A stretch of 64,000 nt of DNA from an uncultured Pseudomonadota bacterium (GCA_963770835.1 CAVYRH010000026.1:78811-142810); one strand, 5' to 3'. Shown: positions 5,546 to 28,565, counted from the stretch's first letter. Notes: generated by a model not told the origin, from the letters alone. Translations and numbers: made by a program.

Positions 5546-7456
5546 ATGCGGAAACTTTTAACCATCCTTTTACTTCTTTCGTCCTTTTCGGCGGTTCCCC
5601 GGCCGTCCCAGGCCGCTTCCTCCGATTTCTTCACGGTGAAGTGGAAGGACGGCAAAGCCTGGTTCATCTCCCCCCTCCACAAACCCTTCCTCTCCATGGG
5701 GGTCAACGCCATCGCCGACCAGTCCTACCGGGCCCCCAACGACGATTATTACAACCCGGTGAAAAACCAATACGGCGGCAATAAGAAAGCCTGGATGAAA
5801 GGCGTCTTTATCCGGTTGAAGCGGTGGCATTTCAACACCCTCGGCTGCTGGTCGGACGACGACTTGACGGGTCAGAAGTTTCCCTACACCCCCATGCTTT
5901 ACCTCGCCCGCGGGAACAAGTGGGACGACGTGCTGCTTTCGGTTTTCACCGCCGACTTCGAGGCACGCGTCCGGGAGAACGCCAAACAAGCCGTGAAACT
6001 CAAGGAGGATCCCTACCTCTTGGGCTATTTCCTGGACAACGAAATGCCCTGGTGGGGCGATTACGGCTGGCACGCGGAAGGACAGCAAACCCTGCTGGAA
6101 AAATACGCCTTGGGCGGCGTGGACAACGCGAATAAGGAGGCACTCGAGAAATTTTTCGTGGAACGGTACAACAACGATATCGAGGCCTTCGACACGGCCT
6201 GGGGACTCGACTTGAAGTCCTTTGAGGAGATGGAGGGGCCCGTGACCCTGGCGGTGAAGACCCGGAAACAAAAGGAGGAAGCCAACGCCTGGGCGGGCAT
6301 GGTGGCCGAGCGTTATTTCTCCGTAACCACCAAGGCCCTGCGGGATGCGGACCCGAACCACCTCATCTTAGGCGTCCGTTTCGCGGGGGAGACGCCCTGG
6401 GAGGTCGTGGAAGCCTGCGGCCGCTACTGCGACGTGGTCTCGGTCAACCATTACGCGAAATCCGGCGACATTGACCAGGCGCTCCTGGATAACTTCTACG
6501 CCAAAACCGGAAAACCCATCCTCATCACCGAGTATTCCTTCAGCGCCGCGGAAAACCAAAGCGCCGACCCCAACACTCACGGGGCGGACGTGGCTGTTCC
6601 CACCCAGAAGGACCGCGTGGACCATTTCAACCGTTACGCCCACGGGGCCCTGGGCCTTCCCTATATCGTGGGCCTGCACTGGTATGAGTGGTCCGATGAG
6701 TCCCCCGAGGGGCGCTTCGACGGCGAGAATTGCGACTACGGCCTGGTGGACATCCACGACCACGAATACACCCTCCTGACCCAGGCCCACGCGAAGATGA
6801 ACCTGATCGCGACCTCCCTCCACAAGAAATCGGACATCCCGCTTCCCCAGGGTTTCCAGGAGCCAAAAAGGGTGGATTACCGCAGGGCCGAGGCCGGAAC
6901 AGCCGTGGCGTCGTCGCGGGATTTCCTCAAGATCGACAAGACCACCCATGTGGATACTTGGGGGGACGGCCCCAACGAGGGCAAGGCGGTGGCCGACACC
7001 ACTTCGGGGGTCATCGTCCTGGATTACCAGACGGGCACGGGCTGGGGATGCGGGGCTTCCACCTACCCCAACATTCCGCCCCTGGTGTCGGGGGGGGGCG
7101 CGGATCTTCGCGGCTACAACTTCCTCGACTTCAAGGCCTTTGTGCCGAAGGGGACCAACTTCACCGTGTACATGAGCGAGTCCGGGACGGCCGCGCCGGG
7201 AATGCCCCAGTCCCAGTACGCCGGCCAGAACGGCGCGGACGGCGAATCCTATTCCTTTCCCCCCATGACCGGCACGGGAAAGTGGGAGGACTACCGCGTG
7301 GATCTTTCCGAACTGGAACGCCGCACCACCTGGGGCAACCAGCACGGCAACAACATCCTGGACCTGCAGGCCCTCTCGGACGTGGATTTTTACCTGCCCG
7401 GCAACCAAGGCGCGGGCCGAATGCTGGTGAAGGACCTGGTGTTCCGGGAGAAATAA
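5546..7456 (+). CDS. Secreted glycoside hydrolase, clan GH-A (beta/alpha)8 catalytic domain plus C-terminal beta-sandwich-like domain; family not assignable by eye
   Basis: Signal peptide MRKLLTILLLLSSFSAVPRPSQA (internal Met of ORF 5468..7456); candidate acid/base FLDNEMPWWGD and nucleophile ILITEYSF motifs spaced as in clan GH-A enzymes. Confidence 0.5.
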   Translation: MRKLLTILLLLSSFSAVPRPSQAASSDFFTVKWKDGKAWFISPLHKPFLSMGVNAIADQSYRAPNDDYYNPVKNQYGGNKKAWMKGVFIRLKRWHFNTLGCWSDDDLTGQKFPYTPMLYLARGNKWDDVLLSVFTADFEARVRENAKQAVKLKEDPYLLGYFLDNEMPWWGDYGWHAEGQQTLLEKYALGGVDNANKEALEKFFVERYNNDIEAFDTAWGLDLKSFEEMEGPVTLAVKTRKQKEEANAWAGMVAERYFSVTTKALRDADPNHLILGVRFAGETPWEVVEACGRYCDVVSVNHYAKSGDIDQALLDNFYAKTGKPILITEYSFSAAENQSADPNTHGADVAVPTQKDRVDHFNRYAHGALGLPYIVGLHWYEWSDESPEGRFDGENCDYGLVDIHDHEYTLLTQAHAKMNLIATSLHKKSDIPLPQGFQEPKRVDYRRAEAGTAVASSRDFLKIDKTTHVDTWGDGPNEGKAVADTTSGVIVLDYQTGTGWGCGASTYPNIPPLVSGGGADLRGYNFLDFKAFVPKGTNFTVYMSESGTAAPGMPQSQYAGQNGADGESYSFPPMTGTGKWEDYRVDLSELERRTTWGNQHGNNILDLQALSDVDFYLPGNQGAGRMLVKDLVFREK

Positions 7457-13665: not shown

Positions 13666-16600
13666 ATGCCGGTTTCCCTCTATTTAGGCCCCTACCAGCC
13701 TTTCCTGGAAGACGAACTAGCCTCAGCGGTTAAAACCTTCCGTCAATCCGACCCTTTGTCGCCTTTGGTTGTCCTGGTTCCCAACCGGGCCCTGGTGCGC
13801 CACCTGGGCCAGGCCCTGGCCCGGGCCAACGGATCGGCCGTGAACGTCCGGGTGCTGACCCTGCACCAATACCTCCTCGAATTCACCGAAGAAAAATGGA
13901 TCAAGGAAGAAACCCGGTTCTTGCCGGAGTCCATCGTTCCCTGGGTACTGCGCGAGAACACCAAAAAAATCCGGCCCAAGGGGGACGGGCCTTTCGCGGC
14001 GGTGGACAAGACACCCGGGTTCCCCAAGACCCTGCGGGCCACCCTTTCGGAACTGCGCCAAGGGGGGTTCACGGCCAAGGAACTCGCGGAATCCGCCAAG
14101 GCCATCGGCAAAGCCCGCGACCGCAAGCGCCTGTCCGATAAATTGGCCGAATTCGCCGCTCTTTTGGACGAGAACCAGCAATGGAAAGCCAAGAACCGTT
14201 GGAAGGACCGGGAAGATCTCTATGAGGAAGCGTTGGCGCTTAAGCCCCCCGCCGCCCGGTTTTGGACCTATGGCTTCTATGACGCCTCGTCCCTCCAGAA
14301 GAAGGTCCTTCAGCATCTTTGCGGGAGCCAGGACTCCCAATGGTTCATTCCTTATGAAGGGGACCATCCGGCTTTTGAGTACGCGAAGCCATTCGTGGAA
14401 TGGGCGGGCAAGCTTGGGGAAGTGAAAAAAGAAGGAAAGTTTAAAAGCGGGAAGGGAACGGCGCTGGGAAGACTGCAGGACAACTTATTCAGGCCCGAAA
14501 ATACCCCTCACCCTGCCCCTCTCCCGCAAGGGGCGAGGGAATCTAGTTCTCCTTCTCCCTCGAGGGGAGAAGGAAGGGATGAGGGTGACTTTGATTCTTC
14601 TGACGTAAAGATCCTGCTTTGCCCCGGTGAACCGCGGGAGATGCGGGAGGTGGTGCGGGCCGCCACCGAAGAGGCCGAAAGACGAAAGACCCATTTTTCC
14701 AAATGTGGATTGATTCTTCGCCAATTCGAGACCTACCGGCGCATGATCGTCCCCGCCTTTGACGGCCAGGGCGTCCCCCTGGCCAAGAAGCCTCCGGTAT
14801 TCCTGATGGAGACCCCGGAGGCCAAGGCCTTCCTGCTCCTGCTCGAATGTTTCCAGGCGGAGTTCCCCCGGGAAACGCTGATGGATTTCCTGGCCTGCCC
14901 AAACCTGGACCCCGGGGGGTTCGGGGTGGGGGAAGAGGATTGGAACCCCCACCTTTGGGACCAAGCCTCCAAGGAAGCGGGTGTTGTGGAGGGGGAGGGG
15001 GCTTGGATCGACCGCCTGAAAGAATACGAAAGGCCCAGGTCCGGCAAGAGCTCGTTCGAAGAGGAGGGGATTTCCACGGGAGAATCCATGTCCCTTTCCG
15101 CCTTCCGGGTGAAAGTGCTTCAAACGCTTTTCGACGCAAGGCACAGGTTCGACAAGGAAAAGAATTGGGTCGGGAAGACCGGAATCCTTTTCGACCTGGC
15201 CGAGATGCTTTTTATTAAGTCCGACGCGAAAGAAGAGTTGAAAACCCTGCGGCGGGGAGTGGAGATCCTATCCAAAGAATCCTTCAAGGTGGAAAATGAT
15301 GAAATCAAAGCCCTTCTCTCCGGCCTGATGGAAGAGGTGAAGATTCCATGGAAGACGCCCGAGGCGGGCGGGGTCGAGGTGTCGGACCTCATGCAGGCCC
15401 GGGGCGTGCCCTTCGACGTGCTGGTCCTGCCCGGCTTGGTGGAACAGGGTTTCCCCCGGGTACCCCGTCCCGACCCGCTGCTCTTGGATGAGGAAAGGCG
15501 CATCCTCAATGAACGCTTTTCCGGCAAGGCCAAGGTGCCGGAAAAGGCCGAGGGGCGGCTGGAAGAGAAACTGCTTTTCCTCCTCGCGGTGCGAAGCGCC
15601 CGGGAATGCGTCATCCTCACCGCGTCCCACCTGCATCCCGGCACGGGCGCCCCCCGGGTCCCTTCCAGTTATCTCCATGAAACCCTGCGGGCGGTCACGG
15701 GCGAGCGCCAGGCCCAGTGGGGCGGGGATTCCCCCTATGTCCGAAAGGTCGCGGTGTCCGATTGGGTGCGCGACGGGGGCGAGGTGCGCGTGGACGACCT
15801 GGAAGAAGTCTTGAGCCGTTTCCAGGAAGCCCGGGAGGGGAACCCCCTGCCCGCCCAAGCCTATGCCGCCCGGAAACCCTTCTTCGACGAGGCGCGCAAG
15901 ATGCTCAAAGAGCGCCAGGGAACCCGCAAGTTCACGCCCTATGACGGGGTCTTCCAGGACGCCGCCGCCGTGGAAAAGCTGCGCCAGGACCATTCCCTCA
16001 AGGCCAAGACCCTCTCGGCCTCGCGGCTGGAGACCTACGCCGCCTGCCCGCTGCGGTATTTCTACCGTTATGTGCTGGGGCTCAAGGTCCATCCTGAACC
16101 GGAGCGGGTCTTCCAATTAGACCCGGCGGAAAAGGGCAATCTCATGCATTCGATATTGGAAGAGACCCTGGCCCGGGGCAAGAAGGACGGCTGGCTGAGG
16201 GACCGGGACGGCGAAAAGGCCGCTCGGGCCCTCGAGGAAGAGACCCAAAAGGCCTTCCAAAATTTCGAGAAAGAGGGGGTGACGGGTTCCCAGGCCCTCT
16301 GGCAATGGAGCCAATTCAGCCTGCGGAAGGACCTGCAACGGGCCCTGCGGAAGGTGCTGGCGGATAAGGATTGGACCCCGGTGGATTTCGAGAAGGCCTT
16401 CGGGCGCGAGGGCCAGCCCGAGGTAATTTTTGAGACCCCGGCAGGAACCTTCCGGCTGGAAGGCTTCATGGACCGGGTGGACCTTTCCCCGGACGGCAAA
16501 CGGTTAAGGGTGCTGGATTACAAGTCGGGGAGCAAGACGGGTTTCGCCAATGACAGCGTGAAGGAAGGCACCAAAATACAGATGCCGCTTTACCTTTGGG

Positions 16601-16905
16601 CCTGCCGGACCCTTTATCCGGGAGTTGTTCCTGAGGAAGCGGTCTATGAGTTCCTTACCGCTAAAGGGGACTATGGGTCGGTTTATTTCGAAGCCACCGA
16701 TTGGAAAAAGGTGGAAGAACCTTTGAAAGCACTCCTGACCACGGCGGCGGAAGCGGTGGACCAAGGTCTTTTCCCCGCGGCTGCCAAGGCTTGCGATAAC
16801 TGCGATTACCGGATTTTGTGCGGACCAGGAGCGGAAAAGCGGGGTGCGCGGAAGAAGGAAGATATGAGAGTTGAGAATTATTTCAAGTTGGAGGAATTAT
16901 CATGA
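13666..16905 (+). CDS. addB: AddB/RexB-like helicase-nuclease subunit (inactivated-helicase N-terminus, C-terminal PD-(D/E)XK nuclease with Fe-S cysteines)
   Basis: 1079 aa directly upstream of addA. C-terminal nuclease motif VLDYKSGSK and Cys cluster ...AKACDNCDYRILCG. Carries an in-frame 86-bp palindromic element (14504..14589). The last ~15 codons are low-GC. Confidence 0.75.
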   Translation: MPVSLYLGPYQPFLEDELASAVKTFRQSDPLSPLVVLVPNRALVRHLGQALARANGSAVNVRVLTLHQYLLEFTEEKWIKEETRFLPESIVPWVLRENTKKIRPKGDGPFAAVDKTPGFPKTLRATLSELRQGGFTAKELAESAKAIGKARDRKRLSDKLAEFAALLDENQQWKAKNRWKDREDLYEEALALKPPAARFWTYGFYDASSLQKKVLQHLCGSQDSQWFIPYEGDHPAFEYAKPFVEWAGKLGEVKKEGKFKSGKGTALGRLQDNLFRPENTPHPAPLPQGARESSSPSPSRGEGRDEGDFDSSDVKILLCPGEPREMREVVRAATEEAERRKTHFSKCGLILRQFETYRRMIVPAFDGQGVPLAKKPPVFLMETPEAKAFLLLLECFQAEFPRETLMDFLACPNLDPGGFGVGEEDWNPHLWDQASKEAGVVEGEGAWIDRLKEYERPRSGKSSFEEEGISTGESMSLSAFRVKVLQTLFDARHRFDKEKNWVGKTGILFDLAEMLFIKSDAKEELKTLRRGVEILSKESFKVENDEIKALLSGLMEEVKIPWKTPEAGGVEVSDLMQARGVPFDVLVLPGLVEQGFPRVPRPDPLLLDEERRILNERFSGKAKVPEKAEGRLEEKLLFLLAVRSARECVILTASHLHPGTGAPRVPSSYLHETLRAVTGERQAQWGGDSPYVRKVAVSDWVRDGGEVRVDDLEEVLSRFQEAREGNPLPAQAYAARKPFFDEARKMLKERQGTRKFTPYDGVFQDAAAVEKLRQDHSLKAKTLSASRLETYAACPLRYFYRYVLGLKVHPEPERVFQLDPAEKGNLMHSILEETLARGKKDGWLRDRDGEKAARALEEETQKAFQNFEKEGVTGSQALWQWSQFSLRKDLQRALRKVLADKDWTPVDFEKAFGREGQPEVIFETPAGTFRLEGFMDRVDLSPDGKRLRVLDYKSGSKTGFANDSVKEGTKIQMPLYLWACRTLYPGVVPEEAVYEFLTAKGDYGSVYFEATDWKKVEEPLKALLTTAAEAVDQGLFPAAAKACDNCDYRILCGPGAEKRGARKKEDMRVENYFKLEELS
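14504..14589 (+). mobile_element. Miniature TIR-bounded double-hairpin element inserted in-frame in addB
   Basis: cccctcaccctgcccctctcccgcaaggggcgagggaatctagttctccttctccctcgaggggagaaggaagggatgagggtgact: termini cctcaccct / agggtgac are inverted. Two internal hairpins (ccctctccc-gcaa-ggggcgaggg and ccttctccc-tcga-gggagaagg). No stop codons; encodes PHPAPLPQGARESSSPSPSRGEGRDEGD. Near-identical copy in addA. Confidence 0.7.
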
Positions 16906-17531
16906 GACGAGTGGATAAAAAGTTTATTTTTCTTTATTTTTTTATCGGATTTTCTCCAATCCTTTTCGCGCAAAATGAGTCAAACCAAAATCCTAATCCT
17001 CGGATACCAGAATTACATTCGGACAGTGACGGTGCAATAACACCCACAGCTGTGGAAACTCATCCATATGGAATAGGTATATCTTCAAATCCAATTTGGA
17101 AAACTCGAAACGACGAAGAAATCGTAAGTAAATCCAATGAATTTCTTAAAAATCTGTTCGGCGATAAGTGGTTTGATCACTATTCCGTTTTCAGAATTAA
17201 AAAGAACAATATTCTTAGTCCTGATTATTTTAAAAATTCGAAGGAACATTTAAGCCATGCTTTCGTTGTATTTGTGGAATACAGCTTTTCCGGGCCAAAA
17301 AATTTAAAATCAATAAGTGACGATAAAATCATAAATGGCGTAAGACATGCATGGGTTGGTCCATGGATGATCTTTCATTTGGATTGTACGGAAGCAAATG
17401 ATTCTGGAACTCTGAAGTTCGAATACGGTTCAAATATTGTTCCGCCCTATGATGTCGCTAAGTTGATATCGGCACAAACGCGACAGACACTGCGAAAAAA
17501 GCCGGTTATGACGTTCAATTCAGCTCTTTAA
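16902..17531 (+). CDS. Hypothetical secreted protein encoded in a low-GC island
   Basis: 209 aa with hydrophobic N-terminus FIFLYFFIGFSPILFAQ. Local GC far below the flanking genes; ATGA overlap with the addB stop. Confidence 0.45.
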   Translation: MRRVDKKFIFLYFFIGFSPILFAQNESNQNPNPRIPELHSDSDGAITPTAVETHPYGIGISSNPIWKTRNDEEIVSKSNEFLKNLFGDKWFDHYSVFRIKKNNILSPDYFKNSKEHLSHAFVVFVEYSFSGPKNLKSISDDKIINGVRHAWVGPWMIFHLDCTEANDSGTLKFEYGSNIVPPYDVAKLISAQTRQTLRKKPVMTFNSAL

Positions 17532-17749
17532 GCTTAATAACTACCCCAAAGATGTTGGGAAAAATTTCATTACTTGTTCCCGGCTATTCCTCAGTCTTTA
17601 AAAATTCCGGTATGGTCGAAGTAAATGCGGAAGATTCATCGATTTTATACAGGGGTTTTCCAACGGGGGGACCGATATTAGTTCCTATTACGAGTCAGTT
17701 CAAAAAGAAGTAAGGTCCAAGAAGAAGGAGTTCTTATTGATCTTTGATC

Positions 17750-17883
17750 AACTAATACGGGACCGGGTCACCCACGACCATGAAACCCTTTTCGCGGTGG
17801 ACGCGGGGGCGGGAACGGGGAAGACCACGCTCCTGGTTTCCCGGCTCATCGCGCTCTTGGTCGAAAACAGGATTGCGGCCTAA
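17750..17883 (+). pseudogene. Diverged duplicate of the addA 5' end (Walker A region), truncated by a stop
   Basis: Translates DRVTHDHETLFAVDAGAGTGKTTLLVSRLIALLVENRIAA*. Includes a 32-nt exact match to addA 18830-18861 (accacgctcctggtttcccggctcatcgcgct), but flanks are diverged. Confidence 0.65.
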
Positions 17884-17904
17884 TGACTGTTCTTTTGAAT
17901 CCGC

Positions 17905-17953
17905 TTGATTTTCATTGGTCGCTATGAGAATATGACCATGATATATAGTCATA
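17905..17953 (+). promoter_or_regulatory. Putative sigma70 promoter (TTGATT-17-GAATAT) with overlapping inverted repeat tatgac-N11-gtcata, upstream of the antitoxin gene
   Basis: Read directly: ttgattttcattggtcgctatgagaatatgaccatgatatatagtcata, followed by RBS aaggaga and ATG at 17964. Confidence 0.35.
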
Positions 17954-17963
17954 AGGAGAAACC

Positions 17964-18191
17964 ATGAAAACCATCGCCGCCGGTGAATTTAAGGCCAAGT
18001 GCCTTTCCCTATTGGATGAGGTCAGCCGCGCCCATGAAACCATCGTGGTGACCAAACGGGGGATTCCCGTGGCAAAGGTGGCCCCGGTACTTAAAGAAAA
18101 GGGCGGCCGCCATGCTTCCCTTCGCGGGAGCATTTTGGCAGAGAAAAACCTTATCCATCCGATCGGGGATAGCTGGGAAGCCGAGCAATGA
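17964..18191 (+). CDS. Type II antitoxin, Phd/YefM/VapB-like
   Basis: 75 aa; MKTIAAGEFKAKCLSLLDEVSRAHETIVVTKRGIPVAKVAPV matches the Phd/YefM fold. 4-nt overlap with the downstream PIN gene. Confidence 0.7.
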   Translation: MKTIAAGEFKAKCLSLLDEVSRAHETIVVTKRGIPVAKVAPVLKEKGGRHASLRGSILAEKNLIHPIGDSWEAEQ

Positions 18192-18574
18192 TTCTTTTGG
18201 ATACCCATGCCTGGATTTGGTGGTGCACGGGTTCTTCCAAGATTTCCCCGAAGGCCTTAAAGGCCATTAAAGCCGAAGAAACGGTGGGGATTTGCGCCAT
18301 TAGCTGTTGGGAAGTCGGGATGCTGGTGGCGAAAAAGCGGTTGGTCTTGGACCGGGACGTGGAGGTATGGGTAGACCAGGCCTTGAAATTCCCCAAAGTC
18401 CAGTTGATCCCCCTGACACCCCGGGTTGCCGTGAAAAGCACCTTGCTGGGGGAAGGATTCCATGGGGACCCGGTTGATCGGATCTTGGTGGCCACCGCGG
18501 CGGACTATGGTTGTCCCCTCGTCAGCAAGGATGAGCGAATCCATCGTTTCAAGGGCATCAAGGTGATTTGGTAA
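18188..18574 (+). CDS. vapC: Type II toxin, PIN-domain ribonuclease (VapC)
   Basis: 128 aa; ILLDTHAWIWW N-terminus with acidic PIN residues, typical VapC. Confidence 0.75.
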   Translation: MILLDTHAWIWWCTGSSKISPKALKAIKAEETVGICAISCWEVGMLVAKKRLVLDRDVEVWVDQALKFPKVQLIPLTPRVAVKSTLLGEGFHGDPVDRILVATAADYGCPLVSKDERIHRFKGIKVIW

Positions 18575-18748
18575 AAGATATGCGGAACACACCTGAACCG
18601 AAAAAAGCGCCTGCGGCGGATCAAATCGTCGCTATGGAGGATAAACACCGACAAGGCTACCTTTCTCATCCCGCCACAAAAAAGGAATTTGGGGTTTGGG
18701 AAAAGGAACAGGCTTGGGGGGATGAGTGAAGGTTAATAAGGCGATTTA

Positions 18749-21700
18749 ATGATCTCAGACCAGTCCGTTCGGGACCACATTATCCATGAACATGAGACCC
18801 TCTTCGCGGTGGATGCGGGGGCGGGAACTGGTAAGACCACGCTCCTGGTTTCCCGGCTCATCGCGCTTCTCCTGGAAAAGCAGGCGCCCTTAAGCCGCAT
18901 CGCGGCCATCACCTTCACCGAAAAGGCCGCGGCTGAATTGGCAGAGCGGCTCCGATCCAAGCTCGAAGAGGCTCTCAGTAAGCACCCCGACCAAAAAGCC
19001 CTGATTCTCCAAGCCCTCGAAGATATGGAAAGAGCCCCCATTTCCACCATCCATTCCTTCTGCGCGGGGCTTTTGCGGGAATACCCGGTGGAAGCGGGAG
19101 TGGACCCCCAGTTCACCCTCCTCGACGAAGTGCAATCGGGGGCCTTCGAGGACCAGGCCTGGGACTATTGGCTCAAGAAGAACCTGGCCAAGCCCGTCGA
19201 ACCCTTATTCCAGTTCCTTCGTTTGGGCGGCACCTTCGAGCATGTGGATGAACTCAAGCAGTTCCTGAAGCGCAACCGCACCCTTTTGGCCCTGTCATCC
19301 CCCAAACCCTTGCCTTCGGTCCAATCTTTTAAGTATCAATTCAGTTCCTTCGTGGCTTTGACGAAGAAGGAAGCCACCCAATGCGCCAAGCATGAGGATA
19401 CCCTTTATGTGGCTCTTGAAGCCTTTTGGGCCCAGTGCACGGCTATCGAATCTTTAAATACACCCTCGCCCCTTGGCCGTGGTTTTGAGGGTACACAGGG
19501 GCTCTTCCCTGTGAAAGCTGTTGGGGAGATGGGTAGGGTGAGGGGTAAGCAGGAGAGTCACCCTCATCCCGACCTTCTCCCGTCAAGGGAGAAGGGGAAA
19601 CCAATCGATGGTGACTCACTGTCTGAGGATATTGCCTTTGAGTTGGCGAACTTGAAGGTTCCCAAGGTCGGCAACAAGGGCGCCCAAGGCAATTGGGGGA
19701 AAGAGCGGTTGGCCGCCCTGCGGGAGGGGTTCGTGAAGCTGGCGGAGGACCATCAGACGGCATTTGCCTCCTTCAAAGAGGCCGCCGTCCTGAACCTGGT
19801 CCATTGGATCGGGGGATACCTGAAGGAATGGGAAAGCCAAAAGGCCCAGGGCGGCTTCCTCGATTTCGACGACCTACTCCTCAAGACCCGGGACCTTTTG
19901 CGGGACTATCCCGAAGCGCGGGAAGAGATGAAGCAACGGCTCGACTACCTCTTCGTGGACGAGTTCCAGGATACCGATCCCCTGCAAGTCGAGATTGTTT
20001 TCTTTCTCTCGGAGAAATTGGCCCCCCTACGCCATCCCACTACGCCCGATGGGCTTCGAGGGACAGGCGGCTTCGGGGGGCGGCCTCAAGTTATTGATTG
20101 GAAGAAGATTGAACTTGAGGCCGGCAAGCTTTTCCTGGTCGGCGATCCCAAGCAAAGCATCTACCGCTTCCGCCGCGCGGACGTCGCCATCTATGAGGCG
20201 ACGAAGGAACGCATCCTCGCCAACGGAGGCAGGGTCGAGGTTTTGGCCGAAAACTTCCGCACCGTAGGCGGTTTGGTGGAATGGGTCAACGGCTGTTTTC
20301 CTACCCTCTTCGAGGGCACGGGCATCCACTATCACCCCTTGAACGCGAGCCGGGAGAAAGGAAAGACCGAGGGTACATTGCCCATCCTTTGGGGCTTGAG
20401 CATCCAGGCGTCCAAGGAAGAAAAACCGGGCAAGGCCCTCCTTCGGCAGCTCGAGGCCGAAGGGGTGGCGACCTTCCTGAAAGAGCAAGTGTTGGGCGGC
20501 GGGTTCACGGTTTCGGACCCCAAGACCCACGAAAGGCGGCCGGTCAAGAAGGGCGACATCGCCATCCTTTTCCGGGACCTCTCCAACGACAACGAGGAAT
20601 TCTGGGAGGAAGCCCTCCGTAAACGGGACCTTTCCTACCAGATCGTGGGGGGAAAGAGGTTCTACAACCGCCCCGAGATCGTGGCCCTTTCCACCCTCTT
20701 GACCTGCCTTTCCTCGCCCGCCGACGAGGCGGGCTGTGTTGCCGTCCTCCGAGGGCCTTTGTTCGGTTTCAGCGACGAGGAACTGTTCCTTCACCATGCC
20801 GGCGGCGGGAACTTTCAATTCTTAAATCCCTCAAATTCCGGCAAAGACACCCCTCACCCTGACCCTCTCCCTCAAGGGGCGAGGGTAGCTAGTTCCCCTT
20901 CTCCCTTGAGGGGAGAAGGACGGGATGAGGGTGATTCAAAGGATTCTCCTCAAAGATATAGAGAAAAAATAAAGTTGGCATTCTCCTATCTTAGGGAATG
21001 GCATCAAGCCACCCGAACCTTAGGGGTGTCGGATACTCTCGCGAAACTCTATGAAAGCACCAACCTGCTCGCCGTGACGGCGGGCCAGCCCCATGGGGAA
21101 CAGCGGGTGGCGAACCTGATGAAGGTGCTCGACCAGGCACGGGACCTGGAGACCTCCCAACATTTCACCTACCGGGCCTTCACCCATTGGCTGACGACCC
21201 AACAAGAGGAAGGGACCATGGAGGGTGAGGCCCCCGGGCCCGATTCCTCCGAGGACCGCACCGGTGTCTTTAATGACACCGGCACCGTCAAATCCAGCGC
21301 CTCGGCTGGTAGCCTCGGCGCAGACCGCATCACCCTCATGACCATCCACAAGGCCAAAGGGCTCGAATTCCCAATCGTATTTGTGTCGGGCCTGGCCGCC
21401 GACCCCAAGGACTCGGGGAGCCTGGTGGACCGCAAACATTCGATAGGGGCTTTCAAAGTGGGGAAGGCGGACCTGGGTCTAAGGACCCTGAACTACGAGG
21501 CCGTGCGGGATGAGGAGGAGGTCCAACGCAAGGCCGAGGACACCCGCCTGCTTTACGTGGCGGCCACCCGGGCCCGGGATTGCCTTCTTTTGCCGCATTT
21601 CCAATTCTCACCCGAAAGCAAGACCCAGAATGAGAGCCTTTTCGCTGGGCCGCTGCTGAAGGCCCTGGAGGAAAACAGCGCGCTGGTGCTATCTGCGCCG

Positions 21701-22456
21701 AGGCCACCAGCCGAGGCGCAAGATTTGACGGCACGGGCGTCCTTACAGACGCCGGTGCATTGGGTCGAGCCGAAGGAAGATGCCGAACCCTTGGGCGACC
21801 CCCCGGCCTGGGTGGTGCCCTTGGACGAAAAACCGGGAGTGGCTTTGGAAGTTGAGAAGGAAAAGCTCAAGAACGAGCAGGAAGCCCGTAAGAAAAAACT
21901 CGAAACCTTACGCAGCGAGAAGGATTTCAAATCCGTCACATCGGTCCTGAGTGTGGACGCGGATAAAAAGGAGCGGGAAGAACGGGTCTTTGATGAACCG
22001 GAAGCGGTCTCACCCTGGGGTGGGAAGGACCTGGGTTCCTTCGCCCATCTTTTATTGGAAAAGGGCTGGGATTGGGATAGTGCTACTTTGAAAAAAGCAG
22101 CTTCGTTCTACGCGGAGAAGATGGGGATTCCCGGGGAACAAGCGGACATGGCCGTGGGATGGGTGGAGAAAGCTCTCGGAAGCGCACTCATTAAAAGAGC
22201 CAAAGATTCCAAAAAGGCTTATCGGGAATTACCCATCACCGGAAAGCGGAAGGATGGAACCTACTTGAACGCGGTCATCGACCTGGCTTTCTTCGAAAAC
22301 GATGAGTGGGTTATTGTGGATTACAAGAGCGACCAAGACCCCAAGAAACTCGAGGAAAAATACAAAGAGCAATTGGGCTATTACAGGGAAATGTTGGAGA
22401 CCCTGACCCAAAAGAAGGTCAAAGAAACCAAATTATTGTTCCTCCGAAAACTTTGA
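18749..22456 (+). CDS. addA: AddA-like ATP-dependent helicase/nuclease subunit (UvrD/Rep SF1 helicase plus C-terminal PD-(D/E)XK nuclease)
   Basis: Walker A AVDAGAGTGKTTLL; helicase motifs DEFQDTDPLQ, VGDPKQSIYRFRRAD, TIHKAKGLEFP; C-terminal nuclease VIDLAFFENDEWVIVDYKSDQD. Contains two in-frame repeat-element insertions. Confidence 0.85.
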   Translation: MISDQSVRDHIIHEHETLFAVDAGAGTGKTTLLVSRLIALLLEKQAPLSRIAAITFTEKAAAELAERLRSKLEEALSKHPDQKALILQALEDMERAPISTIHSFCAGLLREYPVEAGVDPQFTLLDEVQSGAFEDQAWDYWLKKNLAKPVEPLFQFLRLGGTFEHVDELKQFLKRNRTLLALSSPKPLPSVQSFKYQFSSFVALTKKEATQCAKHEDTLYVALEAFWAQCTAIESLNTPSPLGRGFEGTQGLFPVKAVGEMGRVRGKQESHPHPDLLPSREKGKPIDGDSLSEDIAFELANLKVPKVGNKGAQGNWGKERLAALREGFVKLAEDHQTAFASFKEAAVLNLVHWIGGYLKEWESQKAQGGFLDFDDLLLKTRDLLRDYPEAREEMKQRLDYLFVDEFQDTDPLQVEIVFFLSEKLAPLRHPTTPDGLRGTGGFGGRPQVIDWKKIELEAGKLFLVGDPKQSIYRFRRADVAIYEATKERILANGGRVEVLAENFRTVGGLVEWVNGCFPTLFEGTGIHYHPLNASREKGKTEGTLPILWGLSIQASKEEKPGKALLRQLEAEGVATFLKEQVLGGGFTVSDPKTHERRPVKKGDIAILFRDLSNDNEEFWEEALRKRDLSYQIVGGKRFYNRPEIVALSTLLTCLSSPADEAGCVAVLRGPLFGFSDEELFLHHAGGGNFQFLNPSNSGKDTPHPDPLPQGARVASSPSPLRGEGRDEGDSKDSPQRYREKIKLAFSYLREWHQATRTLGVSDTLAKLYESTNLLAVTAGQPHGEQRVANLMKVLDQARDLETSQHFTYRAFTHWLTTQQEEGTMEGEAPGPDSSEDRTGVFNDTGTVKSSASAGSLGADRITLMTIHKAKGLEFPIVFVSGLAADPKDSGSLVDRKHSIGAFKVGKADLGLRTLNYEAVRDEEEVQRKAEDTRLLYVAATRARDCLLLPHFQFSPESKTQNESLFAGPLLKALEENSALVLSAPRPPAEAQDLTARASLQTPVHWVEPKEDAEPLGDPPAWVVPLDEKPGVALEVEKEKLKNEQEARKKKLETLRSEKDFKSVTSVLSVDADKKEREERVFDEPEAVSPWGGKDLGSFAHLLLEKGWDWDSATLKKAASFYAEKMGIPGEQADMAVGWVEKALGSALIKRAKDSKKAYRELPITGKRKDGTYLNAVIDLAFFENDEWVIVDYKSDQDPKKLEEKYKEQLGYYREMLETLTQKKVKETKLLFLRKL
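19461..19604 (+). mobile_element. Composite in-frame insertion in addA built from the same hairpin-repeat family (inverted partial copies)
   Basis: caccctcgccccttg (= reverse complement of caaggggcgagggtg), then ggttttgagggtacacaggggctcttccctgtgaaagc (near-identical to 57471-57505), then agggtgagggg, then tcaccctcatcccgaccttctcccgtcaagggagaagg. Stop-free; encodes ...TPSPLGRGFEGTQGLFPVKAVGEMGRVRGKQESHPHPDLLPSREKGKP... Confidence 0.6.
20850..20934 (+). mobile_element. Second full copy of the TIR-bounded double-hairpin element, in-frame in addA
   Basis: cccctcaccctgaccctctccctcaaggggcgagggtagctagttccccttctcccttgaggggagaaggacgggatgagggtga, about 90% identical to 14504..14589. Encodes PHPDPLPQGARVASSPSPLRGEGRDEGD. 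Confidence 0.7.
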
Positions 22457-25619: not shown

Positions 25620-25739
25620 CCGACCAACCGAATCTTCGCAGGGTTACAACGTCATCGTTCCGGCAGTCGTTTGACAAAACAATGAACCGGGCGATAATGA
25701 ACAACTAATGAGCCGGCTAATTCATCTTCCATCCTCATT

Positions 25740-26960
25740 TTGAAACTCCGTCTGAAAGGCCCCAAGCCGGTTATGCGAAGAATCCAAATCGTCGACATAA
25801 TCCGGTCCATCAGCATCATCCTTGTTATGGGACAACATTTGTTCCTCGTGATGGGTCAACACTTGCTCCCATCGGGTAGATTCCCCGTCGATAAAATCAG
25901 TTTTTCATTAACCCACTTTTCCATCAATTTTTCCAACGGCCGTTTCGGAGTTGCACTTTTTTTTGTCGTCTCAGGATATTTGATCACTGAAATCATTGTT
26001 GGCCGAAGATTTGAAAACTATAAAGTCAACTTTAAGGATTTTTACACGAAGCGGGTCGCCAGAATTTTCCCGCTTTTTTTTGTGATTATTTTCACCGGAT
26101 GGCTGATGCTTCATTTTTTTAACATCCATACCCCGCTTTTCGAGGATTTTTTTAACCACCGGGATTACAAGTGTGATTCCAAATTTTGGTTTTCCTTGTT
26201 TTTGCTTCTTTTCAACTGGACCGTTTGCCTCAAGGGAGAAGGACTGGGCTGGTTTTGGACCGTTTTGTGGTCGTTGGCGGTTGAAGAACAGTTTTATTTG
26301 TCCTATCCGTGGGTTTTGAAGAAAATAAAAAAACTCAATAATTTGCTGCTTTTTCTTGGTGCCGTCATTTTGGGAGGTTTAATCTATCGGATCGTCCTGA
26401 CCTTATTGGGCTGGGGGGATTATGCTCACGCCGTCGTCACTTCCTTTGGATCCTTCGATCAAATCGCCATAGGTTCCTTGCTTTACTTCGTGTCGGAAAA
26501 ATGGAAAGACGAGTTTGCGGGGAAAAAAAGCCAATGTGCAGTGCTTTGCGCGATCGGGTTGGCCGTCATGTTAACGGCTTACATTAATATGACTTCCTCT
26601 TTCCCGACTTACCTAAATTACGGGGTCATTTTCGGCCCCTTTTTCATTTCGGCAGGATGTTTTTTGTTCCTATTGGGCGGGTTTCACTTGAGATTTTTTG
26701 AGTCGAGATATTTGCGATGGCTTACGATTCCGGGACAATTAAGTTATGGCTGTTATCTTTGGCATTTCTTGGTAATTTTTATGCTGTTTCCTTTTTTAAA
26801 AAATTTAGGCCCCTTTACGGCTTTCATGCTAATAGTCTTGGGGACGGTTCTATTCGCTTATGTGAGTTATGCCATCATTGAAAGGCCCGCGAATCATCTC
26901 ATCCGGAAACGATTCGGCCTTGGAAAAGGAAAATCATTATCGATTCCTGGATTAGGTTAG
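25740..26960 (+). CDS. Acyltransferase family 3 (OafA/YrhL-like) integral membrane O-acyltransferase, low-GC
   Basis: RIQIVDIIRSISIILVMGQH... N-terminus and about 10 TM segments typical of PF01757. GC much lower than neighbours. Internal tandem duplication VMGQHLFLVMGQHLL. Confidence 0.65.
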   Translation: MKLRLKGPKPVMRRIQIVDIIRSISIILVMGQHLFLVMGQHLLPSGRFPVDKISFSLTHFSINFSNGRFGVALFFVVSGYLITEIIVGRRFENYKVNFKDFYTKRVARIFPLFFVIIFTGWLMLHFFNIHTPLFEDFFNHRDYKCDSKFWFSLFLLLFNWTVCLKGEGLGWFWTVLWSLAVEEQFYLSYPWVLKKIKKLNNLLLFLGAVILGGLIYRIVLTLLGWGDYAHAVVTSFGSFDQIAIGSLLYFVSEKWKDEFAGKKSQCAVLCAIGLAVMLTAYINMTSSFPTYLNYGVIFGPFFISAGCFLFLLGGFHLRFFESRYLRWLTIPGQLSYGCYLWHFLVIFMLFPFLKNLGPFTAFMLIVLGTVLFAYVSYAIIERPANHLIRKRFGLGKGKSLSIPGLG

Positions 26961-26999
26961 ACTCGCTTCAATCCGCTTTGTTTTCATGAAGGATCAAAA

Positions 27000-28565
27000 T
27001 TGACCCATTCCTCCCAACAAAGCCGCTTTTGGGCCCTGGCCGTCCTGGGTTTGGCCGGCCTCTTGATCGTTTTGGAACGCTGTCACACCTACTCCGAGCC
27101 CCTCGAAAGGGACATCACCACCTACGCGGTCATTGGCGAGGAACTCCTCAAGGGCCGGTCCCTTTACTCCGACCTTTGGGACCACAAGCCCCCTGCCATC
27201 CACCTGACCTTCGCCCTTGCCGAGGCCGTTGCGGGGGAGGGGCCCCTTTCCATCTATCTCTTAAACGTATTGGCGGCTTTGGCTACCTTGGCGGGGTTAT
27301 ACCGGGCCGGAAAAAGCCTGGGCGGTTTGGCTGGGGGCCTTTGGACGGCGCTGATTTGGGCGGCCGTTTCCGGGGACCTTTACCTGCAGGCCAACCAACC
27401 CAACGAGGAAGTTTTTCTCAATGCTTTTCAAACCTGGGTATTCGTGTTGTGGCTTTCGGCTTCCGTGAAAACTTTCGAACCTCGCCGGTGGGTCCTTATC
27501 GGCATCTTTTCCGCCATCGCTTCCATTTACAAACCCTTCGCGGTTTTGGAAATCCTGTTTCTTGGCGCGGTTTACCTGGTTCTCAACCCCAAATCTTCCC
27601 CAAGAAAAACCGCTTTGCGCCAAGTGGGAACCGCCTTTGCCTGCGTCCTAGCCGCTTGGGTAGTTCTCTTCGGCTGGTTTTCCCTCCAAGGAAGATGGAA
27701 CGACTTCAAGAACGCAGTCTTTACCTACAACGTTTATTACAGCGGTTACCATGACGCCAGTTTCCTGGAGATAGTGCAAAACATCGGAGGCCAGGCGCTG
27801 AATTTCCAAACCCTTGCCTGGCTCTTCCTACTCTTCGCGCTGGGGTGCCTGGGGGCTTTGCTTGGAAAAAGTAAAAAAGAGGAGCGGGAGCCCCGGCTTT
27901 TTTGGGGCGCCTTTTTGGTGGCGGCCGAATTGGAAGTCCTTCTTCCCGGCTGGTTCTTCGCCCATTACGATCAGCTTCTGCTGCCGCCGCTCGTCTTGGG
28001 GGCGTCTTGGGGCATTACCTATTGGGGGGAGTTAATTAAAGATAAAAGATGGAAATGCCTGCCCGGCACCCTCTTGATGGCCTTCCTTATTTTCCATGAG
28101 GCGCCTTTCTACCGGCTCACACCCGAGGAATGGGCGAATAAAAAATATTCGGACGGTCCGCTGTTCATTCAATCCTACCAACTGGGCCGCGAATTGGACG
28201 GGATACTCCAGCCAGGCGAAACCTTCTATGAATGGGGAAATGAATCCGAACTTTATTTCGCCGCCCGCCGTTCCCCGCCCAGCGGGGTTTTTTACAGCTA
28301 CCCTCTCCTGAATAATCCCCTGGCTGGTGAGCTTTCCCAGCGGGTCGTGCGAGATTTGGAAAAGCAAAGGCCCGAGGTCATCGTCTTAGACACGGCTTTT
28401 TACTTCAACGGTAGTTTTATCCAGCACCACCCCATCCTTCAATGGGTCCGGGGGGTCCAGGACCGCTACAAGCCCTTCCCCCAAAACCCCTACCGGAAGC
28501 CTTTCCTCCTGCTGATGCTCAAGGGGGGCAACCTGGAAAAACGGCTGGGGATGAAACAGACCTGA
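27000..28565 (+). CDS. Polytopic membrane protein with C-terminal soluble domain; possibly a GT-C-like glycosyltransferase (uncertain)
   Basis: 521 aa, TTG start, about 9 TM segments in the first 330 aa, YSDLWDHKPP loop motif, hydrophilic C-terminal domain. Embedded in the GT-C array. Confidence 0.35.
   Translation: MTHSSQQSRFWALAVLGLAGLLIVLERCHTYSEPLERDITTYAVIGEELLKGRSLYSDLWDHKPPAIHLTFALAEAVAGEGPLSIYLLNVLAALATLAGLYRAGKSLGGLAGGLWTALIWAAVSGDLYLQANQPNEEVFLNAFQTWVFVLWLSASVKTFEPRRWVLIGIFSAIASIYKPFAVLEILFLGAVYLVLNPKSSPRKTALRQVGTAFACVLAAWVVLFGWFSLQGRWNDFKNAVFTYNVYYSGYHDASFLEIVQNIGGQALNFQTLAWLFLLFALGCLGALLGKSKKEEREPRLFWGAFLVAAELEVLLPGWFFAHYDQLLLPPLVLGASWGITYWGELIKDKRWKCLPGTLLMAFLIFHEAPFYRLTPEEWANKKYSDGPLFIQSYQLGRELDGILQPGETFYEWGNESELYFAARRSPPSGVFYSYPLLNNPLAGELSQRVVRDLEKQRPEVIVLDTAFYFNGSFIQHHPILQWVRGVQDRYKPFPQNPYRKPFLLLMLKGGNLEKRLGMKQT

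Follow-up and report, generated by a model that had tools for sequence, protein, structure and literature searches.

We analyzed a 64,000-nt stretch of DNA (the window, meaning this stretch at its full length) from an assembly of an uncultured Pseudomonadota bacterium (GCA_963770835.1 CAVYRH010000026.1:78811-142810), in which the junction between addB and addA, the genes for the two subunits of the AddAB repair enzyme, is occupied by an AT-rich cargo gene and by a toxin-antitoxin (TA) cassette of the VapBC type that is bracketed by two copies of the addA 5′ end. All features given below lie on the + strand unless stated otherwise. The left conserved flank is addB (13666–16905, 1079 aa; Pfam PDDEXK_1, E = 6e-42) and the right one is an intact addA (18749–22456, 1235 aa; Pfam UvrD-helicase, E = 3e-51, with UvrD_C and PDDEXK_1). 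Between them we found, in this order, a low-GC (guanine plus cytosine) cargo gene in the form of a frameshift allele (16902–17713), the ATG of which overlaps the addB stop codon (ATGA); the former addA ribosome binding site AAGGAG (17725–17730) with a truncated copy of the addA 5′ end, together forming the left repeat arm (17725–17883); a putative vapBC promoter/operator region (17905–17959); an antitoxin gene of the Phd/YefM family (17964–18191, 75 aa; Pfam PF02604, E = 2e-7; NCBIfam phd_fam, E = 9e-6); a gene for a VapC-like PIN-domain toxin (18188–18574, 128 aa; Pfam PF01850, E = 1.5e-15); and a vapC-addA spacer of 174 nt (18575–18748). The 5′ end of the functional addA is the right repeat arm (18746–18879), as delimited by alignment of the direct repeat. 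The two genes are adjacent, AddB carries a C-terminal PD-(D/E)XK nuclease and AddA a UvrD-type superfamily 1 (SF1) helicase followed by a C-terminal nuclease, as in AddAB enzymes. Both open reading frames (ORFs) are full length and 62–82% identical to those of relatives (addA, 62–73% over its whole length).

The GC content is 0.598 in addB (0.73 at third codon positions, GC3) and 0.573 in addA, and in the ORF at 16902–17531 it is 0.365 (GC3 0.314). The sharp drop after addB, from about 0.58–0.60, which an earlier note made from the sequence alone had pointed out, was thus confirmed, and 16751–17800 is the GC minimum of the entire 64-kb window (the second-lowest stretch, 25701–27050, has a minimum of 0.37). 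Low GC reaches 17713 because the intact cargo ORF extends to that position. It does not extend over the whole of 16860–18748, as that note had held, since the GC content of the vapBC cassette is host-like (0.55–0.56). The arrangement is not an assembly artefact, because it recurs in independent assemblies: the join of addB, cargo ORF and addA fragment is found at 100% identity in L005–L007, which are independent assemblies of other samples, and the join of fragment, vapBC and addA, over 1821 nt at 100% identity, in L092, also an independent assembly. In sister strains (L088–L090, 99% identity) the gene order is unchanged.

Scans of genome and metagenome collections, with one locus added through a VapC search, yielded 15 further loci of the same clade, the bounds of which were set by identity of the AddB C-terminus (75–88% within the clade, then ≤37%). 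The clade is probably the candidate division FCPU426, a label carried by one of the relatives. In three of the 16 clade loci (L010, L012, and L017) the slot is empty and addB and addA overlap by TTGA (...CCTTGATCTCC; TGA stop, TTG start), while in all the others a gene is inserted exactly between the addB TGA stop and the addA TTG start. The direct adjacency of addB and addA that had been expected for relatives was therefore observed in 3/16 loci, but 13/16 carry an insert, and the junction is a recurrent hotspot. We consider it probable, jointly with the other steps of the explanation given below and with somewhat better than even confidence, that the ancestral junction was the 4-nt TTGA overlap coupling translation of the AddB and AddA subunits. 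Outgroup loci, which are more distant, have addB-addA gaps of 5–544 nt, most of them near the GC of the host and none AT-rich like the clade cargo.

The last ~15 codons of addB are of low GC, as had been reported, but this DNA did not come with the insert. The amino acid and nucleotide sequence of the C-terminal tail (…RKKEDMRVENYFKLEELS, about 16860–16905) is conserved in all relatives, including those with empty sites (conservation was checked in 5 species), and the tail is equally AT-rich in relatives without an insert. Judged by this conservation, the tail is native, and the suggestion that it had been replaced has to be withdrawn.

The 13 occupied loci hold one of about 11 unrelated cargo types, with an insert GC of 0.28–0.49 vs. 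0.53–0.63 in the adjacent addB, and the ispH-addB-addA synteny is kept in all clade loci long enough to show it. In L002 and L009 the cargo is a 541-aa kinase (6359–7984 in L002), the only cargo that scored in PADLOC, where the L002 protein matched Stk2 (positions 126–486 of 500) and PD-T4-6 (E = 1e-45). Loci L004 and L013 carry a 399-aa TPR protein, L014 a PLDc_2 protein (5693–6241) with weak DpdK resemblance, and L015 a DUF1573 secreted protein; the cargoes of L003, L008, and L096 have hydrophobic, membrane-like N-terminal or multi-pass segments, and those of L011 (176 aa), L001 (179 aa), and L016 (363 aa) could not be assigned to a family. As a side observation, two of these cargoes, the L002 kinase and the L014 PLDc_2 protein, look like anti-phage genes. 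The cargo proteins of L001–L004 show similarity neither to one another nor to that of the window. No identical cargo was found in two clearly different species, the members of the pairs L002/L009 and L004/L013 each looking like one species. In the AddB tree neighboring tips differ in slot state, and cargo state is uncorrelated with the tree.

No integrase, transposase or tRNA accompanies the inserts in or near the region, according to ORF listing and a tRNA scan, and no Rfam family was matched there. We also considered a target-site duplication, as the right ends of the inserts resemble the addB 3′ end (ATTGGAG..ATG); in comparison with shuffled sequences the resemblance was not significant (sum p = 0.16), and the motif is more plausibly the addA Shine-Dalgarno (SD) sequence lying in AT-rich DNA. 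With unrelated, mostly AT-rich single genes that differ between species, the slot resembles a minimal mobile element (MME), and its cargo genes are presumably swapped through homologous recombination in the conserved flanks.

The cargo of the window itself had been described as a secreted-protein ORF at 16902–17531. Such an ORF of 209 aa is present, but it is a broken allele. The sole close homologue cluster found (P0001, 97% identical, 270 aa) comes from contigs with one extra base after window position 17479, in which the ORF extends to 17713, and the intact 270-aa ORF (equivalent to 16902–17713) is also present in the sister strains at 99% nucleotide identity. The 53-codon ORF at 17552–17713 in the window is the out-of-frame tail of this longer ORF. 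By alignment, then, the 209-aa ORF is a frameshift (1-nt deletion) allele of a 270-aa secreted-protein gene, and the frameshift is a real polymorphism because both alleles occur in short-read assemblies. The cargo, which would be translationally coupled to addB, is inactivated by the frameshift in the window strain and is therefore probably dispensable, frameshifted and intact alleles both being found in independent assemblies; this is a further step of the joint explanation and shares its moderate confidence. The cargo of L096 is frameshifted as well.

A word-indexed protein search with the cargo protein returned the same species only, while an exhaustive HMMER search revealed 14 remote homologues (24–42% identity), which form a small uncharacterised secreted family. 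The domain shared by P0001 and 13 of the homologues gave no Pfam or NCBIfam match, and its sequence did not qualify as PepSY or cystatin. A single-sequence AlphaFold model was unusable (pLDDT 31); an AF2 model (pLDDT 76.8) gave weak PepSY/cystatin-like structural matches, by which the cargo may encode a secreted protein of this fold. Neither the cargo protein nor the TA cassette had a match in the phage and plasmid collections searched, and the PADLOC models of known anti-phage defence matched neither the 209-aa ORF nor VapB nor VapC.

Behind the cargo, positions 17734–17867 repeat 18746–18879 directly over 134 nt with 80% identity, and the longest exact run is 35 nt (17821–17855 = 18833–18867). 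The earlier note was right that a diverged piece of the addA 5′ end is duplicated and that an intact addA follows at 18749; the position of the copy and the length of the exact run, given there as 32 nt, are corrected here. The stub ORF (17737–17883) has a TTG start, 48 codons and a TAA end, and matches the N-terminus of Pfam UvrD-helicase (E = 2e-6). The stubs of the clade are preceded by the ancestral addA leader (…ATTGGAG-N8-start), just as addA is in cassette-free relatives, while the sequence upstream of the working addA is different and cassette-derived. The stubs have decayed in different ways. In the window we observed a 15-nt deletion, a stop following codon 48, and non-conservative changes at codons 3–7, with sister strains differing in one of these changes; the stub of L097 has an early in-frame TAG; that of L001 is put out of frame by a 23-nt insertion, and its Walker A motif is broken (GKT to VKT); and the tail of that of L003 is barely recognisable. 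Stub ORF lengths are 41, 44, 48, and 66 codons. This differing decay argues against a conserved peptide, and by comparison with its homologues the 48-codon “helicase” ORF is a pseudogene stub. In stub codons 8–35 the differences are almost all at third positions (10/11 vs. the consensus in L003), so they would have arisen while the sequence was coding in a working gene.

The working addA of the window is unusual at its start. At nt 29–66 it has 8–9 states that occur in none, or in 1–2 at most, of 8 relatives, and there the stub has the consensus; from about nt 67 the gene is at least 0.9 identical to the closest relatives. Such a mosaic of addA and stub would be the pattern expected from a crossover inside a conserved stretch. 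The first ~210 nt of addA (18749–18960 in the window, and likewise in all relatives) have a nucleotide conservation of about 0.74–0.95, third positions included, vs. about 0.6–0.7 in the rest of the gene, and this strong conservation makes the addA start usable as a recombination arm. Codon bias or a constraint at the RNA or DNA level are possible causes of the conservation. The left junctions, in addA coordinates, fall at about +105 in L001, +117 in L003, and +156–160 in the window and L096. The window stub is 0.79 identical to its own addA and up to 0.89 to the addA of other species, which led us to reject gene conversion between the two copies. A last event of homology-facilitated illegitimate recombination fitted the window poorly, as the apparent switch point (nt ~67–119) lies upstream of the left junction (~+160). 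Separately, 22 nt of the addA 5′ region (17766–17787, codons ~10–17) are 86% identical to a stretch of vapB (18020–18041). This likeness is conserved in all three VapBC-carrying species (L003 8030/8279 and L096 4576/4832 in addition to the window), with a roughly estimated chance of about 1%, and could be a relic of a founding illegitimate join or a coincidence. Short AddA N-terminus proteins in other phyla (L107–L109) were set aside as fragmented or decayed addA genes of different architecture; in the marine contig L109 (1843–6268), for example, only a 76-aa ORF for the AddA N-terminus stands behind addB, with DUF402 and fpg next in line, as if addA had been lost or truncated in this lineage.

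The TA genes overlap by 4 nt, antitoxin first. The antitoxin scored 31.1 bits with PF02604 (cut-off 29.8) and 24.9 bits with TIGR01552 (cut-off 20.8). The toxin match to PF01850 covers 118/120 profile positions and includes the acidic residues D5, E42, D94/D97, and D115, in motifs that were invariant in the 14 sequences read; 403 toxin homologues were found, and with the NCBIfam VapC equivalog the toxin scored 16.8 bits, under the cut-off of 80 bits. A putative operator palindrome with 9-nt arms, TATGACCAT-N5-ATAGTCATA (17931–17953), lies just upstream of vapB in a block that, with this palindrome and a −35-like box, is shared in conserved form by six related cassettes that lie in three kinds of surroundings. 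Putative promoter elements are the −35-like TTGATT (17905–17910) and GAGAAT (17926–17931), followed by the SD sequence AAGGAG (17954–17959). A strict sigma-70 scan called neither a vapBC promoter nor any addA promoter. Because the acidic residues are kept and the antitoxin and operator are intact, the module is probably an active, autoregulated type II TA system.

The earlier identification of a promoter/operator followed by a VapBC-like pair ahead of addA is upheld by these results: the putative operator is palindromic, and the pair, a genuine VapBC-type module, faces addA with no terminator-like site in between. A promoter of addA's own downstream of vapC, which had also been raised, did not emerge: the spacer contains no terminator-like site, no promoter consensus and no Rfam match. 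As there is neither a terminator-like hairpin nor a consensus promoter in the spacer, read-through from the TA promoter is likely, and addA is probably transcribed from this promoter as well as from upstream. At the same time, addA would now be uncoupled from addB, with the translational coupling of the TTGA overlap lost. The spacer is 45% identical to the longer spacer of L096 and has no counterpart in L003, where the gap is 16 nt; its 53-codon ORF is not conserved and has no family match. Compared with shuffled sequence, the spacer folds a little better (z = −2.45), and it may be a remnant of a third cassette gene.

The frame of addA fragment, VapBC and addA was found in the window species, L003, and L096/L097. 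In L003 an unrelated cargo of its own is followed by the addA fragment, vapB, vapC, and addA. L096/L097 and the window are 93% identical in VapC, 89% in VapB, 75% in AddB, and 66% in AddA. In L001 the fragment is followed by a different overlapping two-gene cassette (91 + 107 aa) and then by addA; the product of the second gene has weak CcdA/Rv0623-like (ribbon-helix-helix-like) matches and nothing in PDB, so that we call the pair TA-like for its architecture, with no TA family assigned. Fragment and cassette are both missing from L002, L004, and other relatives, including those closest to the window species, and in no relative did we find the same set of intervening genes with a uniform GC. 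Across the relatives, the low-GC gene varies independently of the TA cassette. The view of the intervening DNA as inserted is thus borne out by the three overlapping junctions, but not the view of it as a single island.

VapC relatives at 70–80% identity occur in unrelated contexts (same-strand cassette arrays, upstream of efp, beside a glycoside hydrolase), none of them with an addA fragment. These cassettes share a −35-like GCTTGAC box and a TGAGAATATGACCAT..GTCAT operator block, which gives the module its left boundary. The addA-linked VapCs are monophyletic, with a cassette-array copy as their sister, and their hosts are interspersed with cassette-free species in the AddB tree. Third-position differences between the window and L096 amount to 0.32 in vapBC and 0.46 in addB (Fisher p = 0.002); for the window and L003 the values are 0.41 and 0.37, which is not significant. 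The cassette shared by the window and L096 was, by this measure, probably exchanged horizontally, with homologous recombination in the addA arms as the probable route. On all this evidence, the cassette would have a single origin in the addA context and would have been exchanged between lineages at least once. Apart from this, the same-strand small-gene arrays that hold VapBC relatives at 73–80% identity (L099 and L103) contain many TA pairs and are punctuated every 0.5–1 kb by a 33–36-nt palindromic repeat, GTTGTCCACGACGGGGACCC.TCGTGGACAAC (L099 4641–4673, 5645–5677, and 6197–6229; L103 3884–3919, 4616–4651, and 5441–5476). Their organisation is reminiscent of integron attC sites, the repeat being shorter.

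The explanation that we favour, at the moderate confidence already given for its steps, is that two independent and nested acquisitions took place at a clade-wide insertion hotspot, one filling the cargo slot and the other bringing in the VapBC cassette. The cassette would travel with its own addA 5′ segment and enter recipients by RecA-type recombination with the conserved addA 5′ end, either through a single crossover of a circle or through a double crossover with stub and addA as arms; no recombinase would be needed. The left copy would then remain as a decaying stub behind the old addA ribosome binding site, and the right copy would head the working gene. Deletion between the repeats would restore addA cleanly but lose the antitoxin, so that toxin addiction may stabilise the cassette. 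Several points weigh against this explanation. The AddB tree is a neighbor-joining tree of 300 aa without support values, and exchange of the cargo by homologous recombination is presumed from the pattern of the locus. The recombination of the cassette is read from about 100–160 nt of very conserved sequence with few informative sites. For most species pairs the third positions are nearly saturated with differences, and significance was reached in the window-L096 contrast only. A single ancient insertion with later losses would also make the addA-linked VapCs monophyletic, the differing left junctions require separate events or later decay, and the explanation leaves the founding join of cassette and addA without an account.

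Other explanations of the locus were weighed against the same data. The source consists of metagenome assemblies, in which repeats can be mis-joined, and a duplication falsely created during assembly or binning was therefore considered; with two addA 5′ copies that are just 80% identical rather than the same, the identical joins and sister strains described above, and the architecture repeated in three further species, its probability is negligible. A remnant of a site-specific integrative element at the addA 5′ end (a prophage, an integrative and conjugative element or an integrative and mobilizable element), mostly deleted so that a TA module and att-like repeats are left, is a more serious candidate, albeit an unlikely one. 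When mobile elements decay, TA modules are typically among the parts that survive, the insert is surrounded by a direct repeat with a 35-nt exact core, the first ~66 nt of the working addA are unusual as if supplied by an element, and L001 holds another two-gene cassette in the same frame. However, no integrase or other element gene was found in five species-level examples, the inserts of which measure 0.8–1.1 kb, and the left junction varies; variable junctions and the lack of a recombinase argue against a site-specific integrase. Moreover, the apparent core is the most conserved part of addA in all species, cassette-free ones too, and the homology in L096 runs 37 nt past it.

The fragment and VapBC may instead be an old vertical feature, present in the clade ancestor and repeatedly lost by recombination between the repeats, with the first 35 stub codons under selection, either for a small Walker-A peptide or for a leader function that carries ribosomes and transcription on into vapBC-addA. 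Equal divergence of vapBC and addB between the window and L003, a single branch for the addA-linked VapCs, fragments that retain an open frame behind a strong SD in the window, L096, and L003, and mostly synonymous substitutions would all fit. On the other side stand cassettes that are closer between the window and L096 than their hosts are, the absence of the cassette from the closest relatives of the window species, and the state of the stubs, with their frameshift and broken Walker A in L001, early TAG in L097, unequal lengths, and non-conservative changes in the window. We rate this possibility as slightly less likely than the integrative remnant. Still less probable, in our judgement, is that the slot genes are functional partners of AddAB, for example anti-phage guards or effectors that sense phage inhibitors, VapBC serving for abortive infection. 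Phage inhibitors and guard systems are known to target RecBCD/AddAB, the L002/L009 cargo matches the kinases Stk2 and PD-T4-6 almost over their full length (E down to 1e-45), L014 has a PLDc_2 domain that is weakly DpdK-like, and in several species the cargo is translationally coupled to addB. Yet most cargoes, that of the window included, are secreted or membrane proteins without defence matches, those of the window and L096 are frameshifted, the slot is empty in three species, and VapBC has no PADLOC match. Returning to the two nested acquisitions, a bolder form of them takes the addA 5′ duplication as a portable homology arm of ~150 nt belonging to a recombinase-free TA cassette, and the slot as a dedicated cargo site tied to the operon. 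We give this form little credence, slightly less than the old vertical feature and more than a partnership with AddAB. If it were true, host recombination at the arm would let the cassette into any related genome, the target gene would be rebuilt, and the cassette would then punish its own loss; the slot would at times contain anti-phage genes with an expression linked to the AddAB operon.

A further repeat lies within the two flanking genes. A palindromic repeat of ~91 nt has three copies in the window, at 14498–14588 (+), 19524–19599 (−), and 20844–20934 (+), all in frame within addB or addA and encoding peptides such as PHPAPLPQGARESSSPSPSRGEGRDEGD and HPHPDLLPSREKGK. The addB copy has about the same position in L001, L010, and L016, while the addA copies are variable and partly account for the length of AddA (1235 aa here vs. 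about 1090–1139 aa in relatives). In being placed in frame within coding sequence the repeat resembles Rickettsia palindromic elements.

For annotation, these results mean that the 48-codon ORF is a pseudogene stub, the 209-aa ORF a broken allele, and addA intact. The locus clearly exemplifies gene turnover of kinds already known and is not new biology. Its MME-like slot and its ordinary VapBC-type module are known parts; what is new is the place of the hotspot, within the addBA operon of a candidate phylum, and the duplicated gene start on either side of the TA cassette. In this uncultured candidate phylum, a strictly coupled two-subunit repair operon can tolerate, and would keep exchanging, foreign genes at one nucleotide-precise junction. 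The locus would also illustrate a route for the spread of TA modules without a recombinase, with the cassette carrying a piece of its conserved target, and, if confirmed, the signature of a gene-start duplication with a TA module would be a searchable marker of recombination-driven cassette mobility.

The closest parallel to the cargo slot is found in the MMEs of Neisseria, the first described example of which lies between pheS and pheT. As in MMEs, different whole-gene cassettes lie between two conserved genes, which here encode two subunits of one enzyme. In both there are no mobility genes and no terminal repeats, and exchange is attributed to homologous recombination in the flanks (Saunders and Snyder, 2002; Snyder et al., 2007; definition as excerpted from PMC3082526). 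Unlike MMEs, which are seen among strains of a naturally transformable pathogen, the slot described here is seen across species of an uncultured candidate phylum; in addition, its ancestral site has no intergenic DNA (TTGA overlap) and its cargo is consistently AT-rich. The likeness lies in the pattern of the locus, and transformation and recombination would be the presumed agents of exchange. With type II TA systems made up of a PIN toxin and a Phd/YefM antitoxin, the pair shares the antitoxin-first order, the 4-nt overlap, the acidic residues, a palindromic putative operator and a patchy, mobile distribution; toxicity, an RNA target and autoregulation are predicted from this likeness in sequence. 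In contrast to the usual type II TA systems, it is embedded in the addBA operon between the duplicated and the intact 5′ ends of addA.

As for the duplicated gene start, SXT reportedly inserts in the 5′ end of prfC and supplies a new 5′ end (Hochhut and Waldor, 1999). An integrative element that inserts into a gene 5′ end and switches the gene is also represented by SpyCI at mutL (PMC4129442). Like these, the insert in the window lies at the 5′ end of a gene for DNA metabolism, with a truncated original upstream and a replacement 5′ end on the working gene. Unlike them, it has neither an integrase between the repeats (window, L001, L003, L096, and L097) nor a fixed att core, it measures about 1 kb, and its junctions vary. 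Finally, the order recC-ptrA-recB-recD in Escherichia coli places an unrelated exported-protein gene among the RecBCD subunit genes. The cargo of the window is likewise an exported-protein gene between the genes of a RecBCD/AddAB-class enzyme; ptrA, however, is fixed and conserved, whereas the slot described here is variable and AT-rich.

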